The notes: generated by a model not told the origin, from the sequence alone. A stretch of DNA of 31,365 bases from Bacteroidota bacterium (GCA_039208155.1 JBCCRG010000001.1:1-31365); one strand, 5' to 3'. Shown: positions 2,541 through 8,014, counted from the first letter of the stretch. Made by a program: numbers and translations.

Positions 2541-4532
<1,992 letters not shown>

Positions 4533-4557
4533 TCAACCAGGGGCACGCGTGGACCGT

Positions 4558-4645
4558 GAAGCCTCCCTACGCCGGTACGAACCGGATCAGGTGCAGAGGG
4601 ACTCTCTCAGCCGCTGCGCGAACGCGGGCGGCACCCCTGGCTTCC
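4558..4645 (-). promoter_or_regulatory. TPP (THI-box) riboswitch aptamer
   Basis: Minus strand reads GGAAGCC-AGGGGTGCC...GCTGAGA-GAGTCCCT-CTGCACCTGATCCGGTTCGTACCGGCGTAGGGA-GGCTTC, matching the established THI consensus, directly upstream of thiC. Confidence 0.95.
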
Positions 4646-4753
4646 GCCCGAATCTACGTCGCACTACTCGGAATGACACGTGCGGACGGGCAGCCCCGAG
4701 ACGGCTGAACGGAGGGTGCTACAAATAAAGAGTCATATTTATTGACGCCGGTG

Positions 4754-5431: not shown

Positions 5432-5559
5432 GTGCGGCCCCGCGCCCCCATGCTCCGAGCGTACATACTTGGTCATGCCATGCCACAACCGGCGTGGAAG
5501 GGTTCGACTCCCTACGCCTGCCTTGGCAGGCCGCTCGGCGGACTTGCGCGGTGCCGTAC
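5432..5559 (+). ncRNA. Y-RNA-like scaffold element Y1 (T-arm insert)
   Basis: CCGCGC 5440-5445 pairs with GCGCGG 5546-5551. CCGAGCG 5455-5461 pairs with CGCTCGG 5532-5538. TACATAC 5462-5468, GACTT 5541-5545 and a T-arm AGGG-TTCGACT-CCCT at 5499-5513. Confidence 0.6.
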
Positions 5560-5595: not shown

Positions 5596-5668
5596 GGTCT
5601 AGTAGCTCAACGGCTAGAGCACCCGGTTGTCTGCCGGACGGTTGCGGGTTCGAATCCCGCCTGGACCG
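5596..5668 (+). tRNA. tRNA-Asp(GTC)
   Basis: Acceptor GGTCTAG/CTGGACC, D-arm GCTC/GAGC, loop TT-GTC-TG, T-loop TTCGAAT, G73. CCA not encoded. Confidence 0.85.
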
Positions 5669-5670
5669 CT

Positions 5671-5792
<122 letters not shown>

Positions 5793-5805
5793 TTCCTTGC
5801 AGCCC

Positions 5806-5970
5806 CAGCGCGCCCCAACGGTTCGAGCGTACATACGTCCTTCCAAAGGGGGATTGCAGGTTCAAGTCCTGCCGGGCCCTCACATGGGCCCGTAGCATAA
5901 TTGGTAATGCACCAAGTGTGTGGCCTCACGGCTCGTCCGTGGAGCCGCCGCTCCAACGACTTGCGCGCTG
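5806..5970 (+). ncRNA. Scaffold element Y3: circularly permuted tRNA-like RNA (YrlA-like)
   Basis: CAGCGCGC/GCGCGCTG terminal stem and TACATAC 5830-5836. Order is anticodon-like hairpin, T-arm GCAGG-TTCAAGT-CCTGC (5856-5872), closed acceptor CGGGCCC-TCACAT-GGGCCCG (5873-5892), TA, D-arm GCAT-AATTGGTA-ATGC. Confidence 0.75.
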
Positions 5971-6026
5971 ATGACTGCTTCGTGCTATAAACTTTGCAAC
6001 TCAGATAACTCTAGAGTGCAAGGTAA

Positions 6027-6098
6027 ATCCCTGAAGGCAAATGGCTAGCTGCCACGCTCACATCGTGGAGATAGTAGGTTCGATTCCTACCGGGGATT
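6027..6098 (+). tRNA. tRNA-Val(CAC), non-canonical (A8, U73)
   Basis: Acceptor ATCCCTG/CGGGGAT, anticodon arm CCACG-CTCACAT-CGTGG, T-arm GTAGG-TTCGATT-CCTAC. Confidence 0.7.
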
Positions 6099-6109
6099 CG
6101 ACACAGAAT

Positions 6110-6181
6110 GTCCCTGTAGGCGAATGGCAAGCCGCCACGCTCTCAACGTGGAGATTGCGAGTTCGAACCTCGCCAGGGATA
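6110..6181 (+). tRNA. tRNA-Glu(CTC)
   Basis: Acceptor GTCCCTG/CAGGGAT, anticodon arm CCACG-CTCTCAA-CGTGG, T-arm GCGAG-TTCGAAC-CTCGC. Confidence 0.88.
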
Positions 6182-6211
6182 CTGCTTTCTTCGGGAAGCT
6201 CTGCGAGCAGC

Positions 6212-6357
6212 ACCGCGCCCACACGCGGACGGCGTACACACTCTCACCAGCGGGCTTGCCCGCACCAACGAAGGGAGCGCTCCCGAGTAGAGCGCTGCAA
6301 GTCGGGCCCCTCAATAGCCGACACGCCGCAAGGCACCGCCGTATGGACTTGCGCGGT
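6212..6357 (+). ncRNA. Scaffold element Y4 (non-tRNA multi-hairpin insert)
   Basis: ACCGCGC 6212-6218 pairs with GCGCGGT 6351-6357, and ACGGCG 6229-6234 with CGCCGT 6337-6342. TACACAC 6235-6241 and GACTT 6346-6350. Internal hairpins include GCGGG-CTTG-CCCGC and AGCGCTC/GAGCGCT. Confidence 0.6.
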
Positions 6358-6393
6358 TCACGCTCGCACTCGGCACCTCGTGCGTGCCACCCT

Positions 6394-6470
6394 GCACCGG
6401 TAGCCCAACTGGAAGAGGCCCGTGGCTCAGAACCACGTCAGTGGGGGTTCGACTCCCTCCCGGTGTACCA
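6394..6470 (+). tRNA. tRNA-Leu(CAG) with a short variable region
   Basis: Acceptor GCACCGG/CCGGTGT, A73, encoded CCA. Anticodon arm CGTGG-CTCAGAA-CCACG; variable region only TCAGT. Confidence 0.88.
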
Positions 6471-6493
6471 CGTCAGCTCCGTGCTGACGCCCT

Positions 6494-6570
6494 CTGGAGC
6501 TAGCTCAAGTGGATAGAGCACCGGCTTTGGGAGCCGGGGGTTGCAGGTTCAAGTCCTGCGCTTCAGACCA
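6494..6570 (+). tRNA. tRNA-Pro(TGG)
   Basis: C1-G72, A73, encoded CCA; CCGGC-TTTGGGA-GCCGG; T-loop TTCAAGT. Confidence 0.93.
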
Positions 6571-6710
6571 CGATGCCGACCTGCGAAGGTCGCCGTCAGC
6601 GCGCCGTGCCATGGGGGACACGGCGCACGCGCCCGGCCACCAGCGGCGGGTGGGGAGGTCTCCCCGCCGTGGCCGGGCGCCTGGTCAGCGGTGCCCACCG
6701 GCACCCACTC

Positions 6711-6781
6711 CGGACCGTAGCTCACCGGTAGAGCGGCTGGCTGAAGCCCAGCGCGAGGTGGTTCGATTCCACCCGGTCCGG
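6711..6781 (+). tRNA. tRNA-Phe(GAA), atypical G73
   Basis: CGGACCG/CGGTCCG; GCTGG-CTGAAGC-CCAGC; GGTGG-TTCGATT-CCACC. Confidence 0.82.
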
Positions 6782-6816
6782 CATAAGCCAACCCATGTGT
6801 AGCGAAGCGAGCTCCA

Positions 6817-6889
6817 CGGGTCGAAGCTCAAGTGGAGGAGCACCTGGCTACGAACCAGGAGGCTGCGAGTTCGAGTCTCGCCGACCCGT
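6817..6889 (+). tRNA. tRNA-Arg(ACG), atypical A8 and U73
   Basis: CGGGTCG/CGACCCG; CCTGG-CTACGAA-CCAGG; GCGAG-TTCGAGT-CTCGC. Confidence 0.85.
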
Positions 6890-6910
6890 CTGAGCCGTCG
6901 AGGCTCACCA

Positions 6911-6981
6911 GACGATGTGGTGCAATGGCAGCATGCCTGGCTTCCAACCAGGGGATGCGGGTTCGAGTCCCGCCGTCGTCT
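6911..6981 (+). tRNA. tRNA-Gly(TCC)
   Basis: GACGATG/CGTCGTC, U73; CCTGG-CTTCCAA-CCAGG; GCGGG-TTCGAGT-CCCGC. Confidence 0.9.
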
Positions 6982-6983
6982 CT

Positions 6984-7054
6984 GTGACCGTGTTGTAACG
7001 GTAGCATGATAGGCTGTGTCCCTGTCGGTGTGGGTTCGAGTCCCATCGGTCACC
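6984..7054 (+). tRNA. tRNA-His(GTG), G-1 not encoded
   Basis: GTGACCG/CGGTCAC, C73; ATAGG-CTGTGTC-CCTGT; GTGGG-TTCGAGT-CCCAT. The preceding base (6983) is T. Confidence 0.85.
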
Positions 7055-7138
7055 AAAGGCTGAGCGTCCTTACTGAGGCAAGTGCACCGAAAAGAGCTGT
7101 TTCACTGTCGGGCTTCGACCATTTACCTCAGCAAAAGA

Positions 7139-7211
7139 ACGCTTGCGATGCGGGGCATCCTGCTGGTCTCCAAAACCGGCAGCGCGGGTTCAACTCCTGC
7201 CAGGCGTGCCA
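7139..7211 (+). tRNA. tRNA-Trp(CCA) with a truncated D-loop
   Basis: A1-U72 acceptor ACGCTTG/CAGGCGT, G73, encoded CCA. GCTGGT-CTCCAAA-ACCGGC; D-arm only ATGC-GGG-GCAT. Confidence 0.75.
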
Positions 7212-7216
7212 GGCGC

Positions 7217-7309
7217 TGGCCCGTAGTTCAATCGGCAGCAACGTCGGACTTTGACTCCGGAGATACAGGTTCGCCCTCACACAAATAGACAGGGCTGTCG
7301 GGCCATCCA
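7217..7309 (+). tRNA. tRNA-Gln(TTG) with about 17 extra nt in the T-loop
   Basis: U1-A72 acceptor TGGCCCG/CGGGCCA, encoded CCA, TCGGA-CTTTGAC-TCCGG. T region is ACAGG-TTCG-CCCTCACACAAATAGACAGGG-CTGT (34 nt versus the normal 17). Confidence 0.7.
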
Positions 7310-7324
7310 ACAACTTCAGTCCCT

Positions 7325-7400
7325 TGATCCATAGCTCAATTGGTAGAGCAGCGGTCTCTTAAACCGCGGGGTGCAGGTTCAAGTCCTGCTGGGTCAACCA
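7325..7400 (+). tRNA. tRNA-Lys(CTT)
   Basis: TGATCCA/TGGGTCA, A73, encoded CCA; GCGGT-CTCTTAA-ACCGC; T-loop TTCAAGT. Confidence 0.93.
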
Positions 7401-7406
7401 ACCCGA

Positions 7407-7501
7407 TGGTCCATAGCTGAATGGTAGAGCGGCGGCCTGTTAAGTCGCAGGGTGCAGGTTTACTGCGTGAACCTGCGGTTTGAATCCTGCTGGGCCAGCC
7501 A
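7407..7501 (+). tRNA. tRNA-Asn(GTT) with a 20-nt T-loop insertion
   Basis: TGGTCCA/TGGGCCA, G73, encoded CCA; GCGGC-CTGTTAA-GTCGC. T-stem GCAGG/CCTGC encloses 27 nt (7459-7485). Confidence 0.75.
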
Positions 7502-7511
7502 TCAGCACTAT

Positions 7512-7582
7512 TGCGGCTTCGTCTAGCAGCAGGACGCCCGCCTCATCAGCGGGAGGCCCCGGTGCGATTCCGGGAGCCGCGA
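7512..7582 (+). tRNA. tRNA with CAT anticodon (Met, fMet or Ile2 not resolved)
   Basis: TGCGGCT/AGCCGCG, A73; CCCGC-CTCATCA-GCGGG; atypical T-loop TGCGATT. Confidence 0.75.
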
Positions 7583-7592
7583 CTAGAAAAGT

Positions 7593-7672
7593 AATGCCGT
7601 GACGCTGTGAAGCCGTGTGGCCGTTGGGTTTCGTGCACAAGACGGCAACACAGCCACACGGCAACACCGCAG
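7593..7672. repeat. Imperfect hairpin built from short repeats (copy E1)
   Basis: GCCGTG-rich left arm, central TTGGGTTTC (7624-7632), CGGCAAC/CACACGG-rich right arm. Confidence 0.5.
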
Positions 7673-7684
7673 CACTCACCAGCA

Positions 7685-7769
7685 GGAGCGTCAATCCGAT
7701 GGGCGACGGAGGTGGTCTCGAAAACCGCTGAGCCGCAAGGCCTTGGGGGTTCGACTCCCTCACGCTCCG
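7685..7769 (+). tRNA. tRNA-Ser(CGA)
   Basis: GGAGCGT/ACGCTCC, G73; GTGGT-CTCGAAA-ACCGC; long variable arm; T-loop TTCGACT. Confidence 0.9.
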
Positions 7770-7793
7770 CCGACAACGACAACACCCAAAACT

Positions 7794-7877
7794 GGACAGC
7801 TAGACCGGTAATGGTATCCGGACCTGTCTGTAAAACAGGTGCCTTGTGCCTTCGAGGTTCGACTCCTCGGCTGTCCA
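7794..7877 (+). tRNA. tRNA-Tyr(GTA)
   Basis: GGACAGC/GCTGTCC, A73; CCTGT-CTGTAAA-ACAGG; long variable arm; CGAGG-TTCGACT-CCTCG. Confidence 0.9.
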
Positions 7878-7925
7878 CACCACCCACTGAGATACTGCCA
7901 CACCGAACCACTGAAGCACCGATAA

Positions 7926-8014
7926 GGAGGGGAGCCGGATGACGGTTCGCCGGAGCGGTCTGCTACACCGTCTGCCGCCAGGCAGCGTGGGTTCGACTCC
8001 CACTCCCTCCGCCA
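7926..8014 (+). tRNA. tRNA-Ser(GCT)
   Basis: GGAGGGG/TCCCTCC, G73, encoded CCA; GCGGT-CTGCTAC-ACCGT; variable arm CTGCC-GCCA-GGCAG; A8. Confidence 0.88.

Follow-up and report, generated by a model that had tools for sequence, protein, structure and literature searches.

The element at positions 5806-5970 of the window, as we call the whole stretch of 31,365 nucleotides from a Bacteroidota bacterium that was analysed (GCA_039208155.1, JBCCRG010000001.1:1-31365), very probably encodes a YrlA-class (tRNA-like Y RNA) handle RNA of about 165 nt, which would dock on a Ro60-fold protein and would not be reordered by RtcB into a decoding tRNA. The predicted RNA gene, 165 bases long and on the + strand, comes third among five paralogous handle RNAs of a block that also contains a tRNA array and the genes for the Ro60-like protein, RtcB and Tpt1. 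Alignments across phyla show a predicted conserved structured RNA with a tRNA-like core (U8, A14, A15:U48, G18 G19 and the T loop) and a covarying handle, and gene order links the putative handle RNA gene to that of a predicted Ro60-fold protein on the same strand. The members of this family appear to combine one conserved protein-docking handle, a function that we infer, with tRNA-shaped bodies attached to it at different positions of the cloverleaf.

Layout and folding of the element

The arms of the element follow the order hairpin, T arm, loop-closed 7-bp acceptor stem and D arm, and all of them are clamped by a long stem that joins the two ends of the RNA. A preliminary description of this DNA had named these same four parts, and each was found where it had been placed. 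The features are as follows:

5806-5813, + strand: 5' strand of the outer stem P1, CAGCGCGC, pairing with 5963-5970 (8/8 pairs)
5814-5820, + strand: 5' side of an asymmetric internal loop, CCCAACG, facing GACUU at 5958-5962
5821-5829, + strand: 5' strand of helix P2, GUUCGAGCG, pairing with 5949-5957, with the mismatch C5824-C5954
5827-5836, + strand: family motif GCGUACAUAC, common to all five scaffold RNAs of the window and to relatives in other phyla
5837-5854, + strand: hairpin upstream of the T arm; favoured fold GUCCUUC-CAAA-GGGGGAU, alternative fold UCC-UUCCAAA-GGG followed by the variable loop GGAUU
5855, + strand: U at the equivalent of tRNA position 48, the Levitt-type partner of A15 (A5900)
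5856-5872, + strand: T arm GCAGG-UUCAAGU-CCUGC, pair probability 0.99, helix 100% paired in the family
5873-5892, + strand: acceptor-like stem CGGGCCC (5873-5879) / GGGCCCG (5886-5892), 7/7 Watson-Crick pairs
5880-5885, + strand: acceptor-closing loop UCACAU, with U5880 at the discriminator position
5893-5894, + strand: linker U5893 A5894, corresponding to tRNA positions 8-9; UA is present in 44/55 family modules
5895-5910, + strand: D arm GCAU-AAUUGGUA-AUGC, with A14, A15, G18 and G19 present; the Rfam YrlA alignment also puts the D arm here
5911-5915, + strand: linker ACCAA between the D arm and the S2 return strand
5916-5921, + strand: S2 return strand GUGUGU, pairing with 5831-5836
5922-5946, + strand: extra 3' hairpin H2, present in the minimum free energy fold
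5949-5957, + strand: 3' strand of helix P2, CGCUCCAAC, assigned from orthologs, a pairing check and pair probability
5958-5970, + strand: 3' side of the internal loop, GACUU (5958-5962), and 3' strand of P1, GCGCGCUG (5963-5970), together forming the recurrent motif GACTTGCGCG

The whole element has a minimum free energy of -79.6 kcal/mol (z-score -4.06), and none of 200 shuffled sequences folded as well (0/200). Helix by helix, comparison with orthologs (handles such as G005 denote genomes of the same genus) and with RNAs of other phyla points to a conserved structure. The P1 helix is kept in the orthologs and exchanges G-C, A-U and G-U pairs in other phyla, with 98.4% paired cells. P2, with a pair probability of about 0.93, carries four compensatory pair changes between G000 and G005, and in other phyla it is 90% paired and shows double changes in 6 of its 8 pairs. 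The acceptor stem keeps its length of 7 bp in G005 by way of two compensatory changes, despite a closing loop of about 18 nt. H2 is also kept in G005, by three compensatory pairs, and is restricted to this paralog in this genus, being absent from relatives in other phyla.

The internal loop between P1 and P2 has the consensus CCCUAAC on its 5' side, near-invariant in 31 sequences from other phyla and flanked by covarying helices, and the 3' end of the RNA, ACUUGYGCGG, is likewise near-invariant in other phyla. CCCAACG (5814-5820) and GACUU (5958-5962) thus appear as a candidate docking site for the Ro60-like protein. Helix S2 would form between ACAUAC (5831-5836, the end of GCGUACAUAC) and GUGUGU (5916-5921), which can pair at 6/6 positions; its thermodynamic probability is low and only 75% of its cells are paired in the family alignment. 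As both S2 and the D arm come out of nearest-neighbour folding with low probability, the geometry of the junction is uncertain.

No tRNA was called at 5806-5970 by ARAGORN or by the Rfam tRNA model, although both programs gave 15-16 tRNAs in 5596-8014, and a scan for sigma-70 promoters and terminators around the element gave nothing above the level of shuffled sequence. Seven public sequencing runs matched the locus, all of them DNA metagenomes.

The handle family and its predicted Ro60-fold neighbour

Within the window, GACTTGCGCG occurs as exact copies at 5541, 5779, 5958 and 6346 and, with one mismatch, at 10911, and all five stretches have CGCGCCC...GC(G/U)UACA(U/C)AC in common on their 5' side. 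The point at which the handle joins the tRNA-shaped body differs among them, being the acceptor stem in 5672-5791, the D/anticodon junction in 5806-5970 and the anticodon stem in 10778-10923.

As an independent test of family membership, 80 loci around homologs of the neighbouring 503-aa protein were collected and searched with a simple descriptor, which required a T arm followed first by a closed stem (6 bp or more) and next by a D arm. All but one of the T-arm/closed-acceptor/D-arm modules (96/97) lie on the strand of the Ro60-like gene, and most carry a handle that reads 5' uCCGCGCCCUAAC-NNNN-RAAGCKUACAYAC on one side and GCUUU-NNNN-RACUUGYGCGGR at the 3' end. From these RNAs we prepared an alignment, A5, of 31 handle RNAs from other phyla, with this genus left out and the structure written by hand. 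The structure accounts for 92.4% paired cells, against 33-49% in slid controls, and double changes are found in 23 of its 34 pairs; covariation is seen in the helices of the T arm, the acceptor and the D arm, and extends in the closed acceptor stem to all 7 pairs, 99.5% of its cells being paired. R1, a covariance model derived from A5, matches 5806-5970 over its full length (82.6 bits, E 5.7e-19, model positions 1-146), which makes the element a bona fide member of the handle family. This match has the same ends, 5806 and 5970, that had been proposed for the element beforehand. R1 also matches 10778-10923 (84.1 bits) and the orthologs (69-84 bits).

A further test concerned the Levitt pair 15:48, whose positions were read as the second base of the D loop and the base just 5' of the T stem. 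Of 55 distinct modules, 26 have A:U and 24 have G:C at this pair, which gives 50 compatible combinations compared with 24.7 expected under independence; it is A5900:U5855 in the element and G:C in G005. Orthologs of this paralog were found only within the same genus, and there every helix is kept by compensatory changes, whereas the loop of the hairpin is not. A scan of metagenome contigs for close orthologs returned three loci, none of them orthologous to this paralog; one encodes another member of the family, in which the anticodon arm is canonical. In the literature searched we found no description of a handle family with the TACAYAC / ACUUGYGCGG scaffold.

These data bear on the possibility that the element is a non-functional by-product of the array, a decayed tandem-tRNA duplicate or pseudogene that merely folds well. 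Its T arm has the same sequence as those of tRNA-Pro and tRNA-Lys in the array, which would be expected of such an origin. Besides, cross-complementarity of acceptor strands is found for 3 of 15 adjacent tRNA pairs of the array compared with 5 of 225 non-adjacent pairs, so that YrlA-like folds can arise from tRNA dimers. A decayed copy is nevertheless very unlikely in view of the conservation with compensatory changes over five species of the genus, the full-length, high-scoring match to a family present in several phyla, and the presence of the handle in four further RNAs of the window.

The presumed partner of the handle RNA, as suggested by structural modelling, is the protein encoded downstream, in the following setting:

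9123-10634, + strand: gene for a 503-aa Ro60-fold protein (HEAT-repeat ring and vWA domain), 3.2 kb downstream of the element
10931-12409: gene for RtcB, downstream of the Ro60-like gene and followed by genes for a DUF6847 protein and a methyltransferase-Tpt1 fusion

An AlphaFold2 model of the 503-aa protein, computed with 24 homologs, reached pLDDT 85.3 and pTM 0.80, and its top Foldseek matches were the Ro60/Rsr structures 9nfa, 1yvp and 2nvo and the phage Ro60 9l5y (E down to 1.6e-12, TM 0.56-0.68). From this comparison with Ro60/Rsr structures, the protein would thus be a divergent member of the Ro60 fold. Its relationship is visible at the level of fold comparison alone, as a phmmer search against PDB sequences returned no Ro60 relative. 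Since Pfam finds no TROVE domain in the protein, where it gives weak vWA matches, binding of the handle RNA is deduced from fold, synteny and strand only. The protein has homologs with 58-67% identity in cyanobacteria, Gammaproteobacteria, Acidobacteriota and Chthonomonadaceae, and the family was matched at no fewer than 597 loci of a collection of species-representative genomes, in cyanobacteria, Bacteroidota and other phyla. Cultured carriers of related loci include Acaryochloris marina MBIC11017 and Oscillatoria sp. PCC 10802.

A possible mode of action follows the one proposed for YrlA. The invariant internal loop of the handle would dock the RNA on the Ro60-fold protein, and the tRNA-like elbow of the T and D arms would recruit a tRNA-binding factor. 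By analogy with the YrlA of Mycobacterium smegmatis, RNase P may nick the RNA at 5885/5886, which would leave two pieces of RNA joined through the handle; such a cut is plausible because of the 7-bp stem, the U at -1, the G at +1 and the U at the discriminator position. As for the physiological setting, cyanobacterial L-arrays have been placed in a context of translational stress and tRNA repair, in a report that mentions neither these RNAs nor the protein (PMC8421152). By analogy, the present block, with an array of spare tRNAs beside RtcB and Tpt1, would fit this stress/repair context.

The hairpin upstream of the T arm and the permuted-tRNA reading

The hairpin at 5837-5854 had been described as an anticodon-like arm in the register UCC/UUCCAAA/GGG (5838-5850). 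This register is possible, although a fold with a CAAA tetraloop is favoured: the former is worth -0.1 kcal/mol, or -2.3 kcal/mol in a 5-bp version with a G-G mismatch, compared with -6.7 kcal/mol for the 7-bp stem with the tetraloop, and in the full RNA the closing pair has a probability of about 0.80 in the tetraloop form and 0.03 in the form with the 7-nt loop. As nearest-neighbour folding also underrates the D arm, these energies are suggestive rather than decisive.

Among the orthologs, the hairpin is identical in G002, while G001 has a C-to-A change in the 3-bp stem, an extra G and a shifted register. In G003 it has an 8-nt loop, UAGCAACA, and in G004 and G005 it reads GUCUC-GCAA-GAGAC, with a GNRA tetraloop and a single nucleotide between the D arm and the return strand. 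Because the return strand begins only 1 nt past the D arm, the hairpin of G004 and G005 occupies the position of a class II long variable arm; the handle stem takes the place of the anticodon stem, which corresponds to the 'V' reading of Chen 2014. A canonical anticodon arm (5-bp stem, 7-nt loop, U33, R37) is not kept among the orthologs.

A different picture is obtained in cyanobacteria and other phyla, where 44 distinct stretches between TACAYAC and the T stem were compared. Of the 23 that are long enough for an anticodon arm, 11 form one in the exact tRNA register, defined as at least 4/5 stem pairs and a 7-nt loop with U33 and R37, followed by a variable loop of 4-5 nt such as AGGUU; shuffled sequences do so in 3.4% of cases, and the other registers in the same test gave 0, 4, 1 and 0 cases. 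These arms comprise at least 7 unrelated stems with loops of the form C-U-NNN-A-A (C32 U33 / A37 A38), and their triplets vary (GAU, UUU, UUA, ACG, GCU, ACU, UCU, UUC, GAC, CGA, AGG). The linker from the D arm to the return strand is 4-7 nt in the relatives with a canonical anticodon arm and 1 nt in the hairpin-less, canonical-YrlA-like members (such as 10778-10923 and the Microcoleus RNAs). None of eight canonical GNCGAA YrlAs from related genera (0/8) has an anticodon-type arm.

The element of the window has several traits of the anticodon type, namely the 5-nt linker ACCAA, the loop UUCCAAA fitting Y-U-NNN-A-A, and GGAUU as a 'variable loop'. Its pre-T stretch is 19 nt long, compared with 23-25 nt in the canonical-arm relatives, and looks like the canonical-arm architecture with the stem shortened to 3 bp. 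In our reading of these alignments, the hairpin at 5837-5854 is probably homologous by position to the anticodon arm of the wider family, and in this genus it has decayed into, or always was, a plain structural hairpin, with no conserved anticodon loop. The earlier idea of an anticodon-like arm therefore stands as regards the position, which holds a canonical arm in 11/23 long relatives, and does not stand as regards the loop, which is not kept in the genus and has a 7-nt register of low probability (P 0.03).

Two other interpretations of the hairpin were considered. A strict 'V arm' reading (Chen 2014) fits G004 and G005 and does not fit the distant relatives, with their 5-nt variable loop and 4-7-nt linker, and both readings were retained. 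A donor tRNA was also sought; the best alignment was with the array's tRNA-Gly(UCC), which shares CUUCCAA. Unrelated tRNA regions align equally well to the hairpin alone, so no donor can be named.

The relatives with a canonical loop show that the family has, or once had, a function related to the anticodon; for this copy, whose loop UUCCAAA agrees with the Y-U-NNN-A-A pattern, such a function is unlikely yet conceivable.

It is tempting to speculate that the RNA acts as an anticodon-arm decoy or sensor, a complete permuted tRNA mimic presented on the Ro60-like protein, whose loop would serve as a target, or as a titrating bait, for anticodon nucleases or enzymes that modify tRNA, the damage being repaired by RtcB and Tpt1. 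The canonical anticodon arms of the relatives in other phyla, with conserved C32 U33 / A37 A38 around varying triplets, the repair genes in the block and the sponge role of array tRNAs proposed by Santamaria-Gomez 2021 argue in favor of this possibility, which we consider quite unlikely for the element itself. In this copy the 7-nt loop register is disfavoured, and RNAs of the same genus have an 8-nt loop or a GNRA tetraloop instead; as the loop is replaced within the genus, a role as anticodon mimic seems to have been lost here or never to have been present. [quoted passage not shown] That this is so and that the copy in the window (UUCCAAA, discriminator U) takes part in it is unlikely.

Another proposal is that the element is a circularly permuted tRNA gene, in which the handle would be excised, RtcB would join about 5911 to about 5836, and RNase P/Z would open UCACAU to give a decoding Trp-CCA or Gly-UCC tRNA. 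The arms are indeed ordered as in permuted tRNA genes, the block includes a gene for RtcB, UUCCAAA fits Y-U-NNN-A-A and GGAUU resembles a variable loop, and the processing of YrlAs towards canonical tRNAs has already been raised by Wang et al. 2018 (10.1101/312249), who state that no bacterial splicing endonuclease is known. In addition, ARAGORN calls a tRNA-Trp(CCA) on the order re-joined in silico, and 60 of 88 such joins between the end of the D arm and the start of the hairpin were called as tRNA, mostly Trp-CCA. We rejected this call as evidence, since at the natural join 356 of 500 molecules with a shuffled hairpin are called as tRNA too, which makes it uninformative.

Several observations speak against such a maturation. 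The anticodon stem would have just 3 bp (-0.1 kcal/mol, P 0.03), with the loop changed in G003, G004 and G005. Inspection of 5830-5837 and 5911-5948 revealed no bulge-helix-bulge, there being no 3-nt bulges spaced by 4 bp; the junction consists of a 6-bp helix that is bordered at one end by linkers of 0-1 nt and 5 nt and opens at its other end into a three-way junction with H2. The splicing endonuclease domain PF01974 (EndA family) was found in none of four genomes of the genus (0/4), three of which are 93-97% complete, while four archaeal controls were positive. Furthermore, no other sequence of the RNA is as well conserved between Bacteroidota and cyanobacteria as the stretch that such a maturation would remove, the opposite of the leaders and trailers of permuted tRNAs. 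Among 83 related loci, just 7 have RtcB no more than 6 kb away from the Ro60-like gene, and the array already has a tRNA-Trp(CCA) and a tRNA-Gly(UCC). Taken together, these results make a decoding tRNA extremely improbable, and circularisation by RtcB with reopening at the UCACAU loop, which had been thought conceivable, finds no support in them. For 5806-5970, the practical value of the analysis is that the idea of a permuted tRNA matured by RtcB can be retired.

Relation to YrlA and other tRNA-like RNAs

The tRNA-like module of bacterial Y RNAs is believed to connect Ro60 with effectors. The three wirings found side by side in the window, together with the intact anticodon loops that some have in other phyla, provide a natural series on the tRNA features that a Ro60-like particle needs, and this series of wirings bears on the published idea that YrlA originated from tRNA dimers.

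Permuted tRNA genes of Cyanidioschyzon merolae and Thermofilum pendens (Soma et al. 2007, Chan et al. 2011, reviewed in PMC3978253) resemble the element in that the 3' half lies upstream of the 5' half, a short loop joins the acceptor ends and the ends of the transcript are paired. Whereas their precursors have a bulge-helix-bulge cut by a splicing endonuclease, and leaders and trailers that are not conserved, the element has no bulge-helix-bulge, no endonuclease gene found in the genus genomes searched, paired ends that are its most conserved part and a non-canonical anticodon arm. A bacterial precedent for a permuted tRNA-like domain is the two-piece tmRNA made from circularly permuted ssrA in alpha-proteobacteria and some cyanobacteria, in which the loop linking the acceptor strands is removed and the pieces are held by pairing; tmRNA, for its part, accepts alanine and contains a reading frame for a tag. 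A comparable two-piece RNA would be expected here if RNase P nicks the loop at 5880-5885, whereas the features for alanine charging and the tag reading frame are absent from 5806-5970.

The closest known relative is YrlA, which had been named beforehand as the simpler reading, that of a YrlA paralog, and is now favoured by the family model, the Rfam comparison, the fold and the genomic link. The best Rfam match is YrlA (RF02553), at 5822-5940 with 36.2 bits and E 1e-6, a score that does not reach the gathering threshold of 69. Canonical YrlAs exist in related genera of the same family and order, in tandem, with 70-76 bits and with the published motif GGCGAAUGC. The Ro-binding motif GNCGAA(N0-1)G is absent near the 5' end of the element, where the stretch reads GAGCGUACAUAC and the family consensus is GCKUACAYAC.

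According to Chen et al. 2014 (PMC4201824), who also used Levitt 15:48 covariation, YrlA is built from three elements, namely the T arm, a closed stem resembling an acceptor and the D arm, and many YrlAs have a fourth stem-loop, 'V', 5' of the T arm. They also report that in M. smegmatis, whose YrlA has an acceptor stem of 7 bp, RNase P cleaves the RNA and CCA is added to it in vivo. Wang et al. 2018 (10.1101/312249; structure PDB 6cu1) described YrlA as lacking the anticodon loop and resembling circularly permuted tRNAs. With the YrlAs of S. Typhimurium, M. smegmatis and mycobacteriophages, the element shares the T arm placed 5' of the D arm with a loop-closed acceptor between them, the nucleotides of the tRNA tertiary pairs, the long stem formed by the 5' and 3' ends, the optional pre-T stem-loop ('V') and the 7-bp acceptor of the RNase P-cleaved M. 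smegmatis RNA, as well as a location near a Ro60-type gene on the same strand, here beside RtcB. The differences lie in the handle, CCCUAAC ... GCKUACAYAC ... ACUUGYGCGG in place of GNCGAA(N)G; in the predicted partner, a divergent Ro60-fold family outside the Pfam TROVE model, along with the sub-gathering Rfam score; in the 5-nt linker from the D arm to the return strand and the extra 3' hairpin at 5922-5946; and in the pre-T hairpin, a canonical anticodon arm in distant members, whereas the published YrlA 'lacks the anticodon loop'.

Another Y RNA, Yrn1 of D. radiodurans, was given a T arm and a potential 'anticodon arm', with a stem of 5 bp and a loop of 6 nt, in a published model (Chen et al. 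2014), and differs from the element in arm order and in having neither a full D arm nor a closed 7-bp acceptor stem. Permuted-tRNA processing of YrlAs is an idea already published; what is new in the present family is that the wiring of YrlA is combined with another handle and with a divergent, predicted Ro60-fold protein as presumed partner.

Handle RNAs with tRNA bodies or permuted modules in related loci

Among the loci surrounding homologs of the Ro60-like protein, those from cyanobacteria (L064-L140) contain runs of RNAs in which the handle, that is, the conserved paired 5' and 3' ends, takes the place of the acceptor stem on a complete tRNA body. All of them share an invariant stem, UACAUAC/GUAUGAA, and carry many different anticodons; their wiring is that of window 5672-5791, and several are called as tRNAs by ARAGORN. 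Such RNAs may be counted as tRNA genes in genome annotations and in tRNA-array surveys.

Examples in cyanobacteria, handle replacing the acceptor stem:
L064:4258
L073:5295
L105:5160-5818

In permuted modules (T arm, closed acceptor, D arm) with an identical anticodon stem, the triplet varies within the group but its neighbours in the loop, C32 U33 and A37 A38, do not. Judged from these sequences, variation seems to be concentrated in the "anticodon".

Permuted modules with identical anticodon stems:
Stems of the two groups: UCCGC/GCGGG and UUGGU/ACCAA
Triplets: GAU, UUU, UUA and ACG in one group; GCU, ACU and UCU in the other
Loci: L073:5461; L080:5349 and 5716; L101:3521; L074, L088, L118, L126 and L130

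Surroundings of the element in the window

The A+T-richer spacer that follows the element (window 5971-6026) contains ACTTTGCAAC-CAGATAAC, which is kept between the window's own genome and the divergent ortholog locus of G004, a genome of the same genus (L144), and could act as a promoter, or as a processing signal, in front of tRNA-Val. A sigma-70 scan around the element found nothing.

Between the tRNA array and the Ro60-like gene lies an uncharacterised ORF of 279 aa (window 8117-8956), which has no Pfam match. Homologs at the same position occur in 6 of the 83 loci (44-92% identity) and are limited to Bacteroidota/Rhodothermia loci and one metagenome contig. Elsewhere in the window, thiC (2541-4469, - strand) has a TPP riboswitch upstream of it (4547-4648, - strand), which scores above gathering at 67.3 bits; this arrangement is ordinary.

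Possible origin of the tRNA-like core

The element's acceptor stem (5886-5892/5873-5880), T arm and D arm all find their closest likeness in the housekeeping tRNA-Met(CAU) (genome contig C44:1154-1227; GGACCCG.../...CGGGUCC) and, on this resemblance, a single tRNA, not two different tRNAs, may have given rise to both halves of the core.

Within the array, 3 of the 15 adjacent pairs (Val-Glu, Phe-Arg and Lys-Asn) have acceptor strands that are complementary between neighbours: the 3' strand of the leading tRNA matches the 5' strand of its successor at 7/7 positions, counting G-U as a pair; complementarity of at least 6 was found in just 5 of the 225 non-adjacent combinations.

Adjacent array tRNA pairs with cross-complementary acceptor strands:
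window 6027-6182
window 6711-6890
window 7325-7501

The array precursor could therefore adopt YrlA-like T/closed-acceptor/D folds. This complementarity between neighbours also suggests tandem duplication, in agreement with the published idea that YrlA originated from a tRNA dimer.
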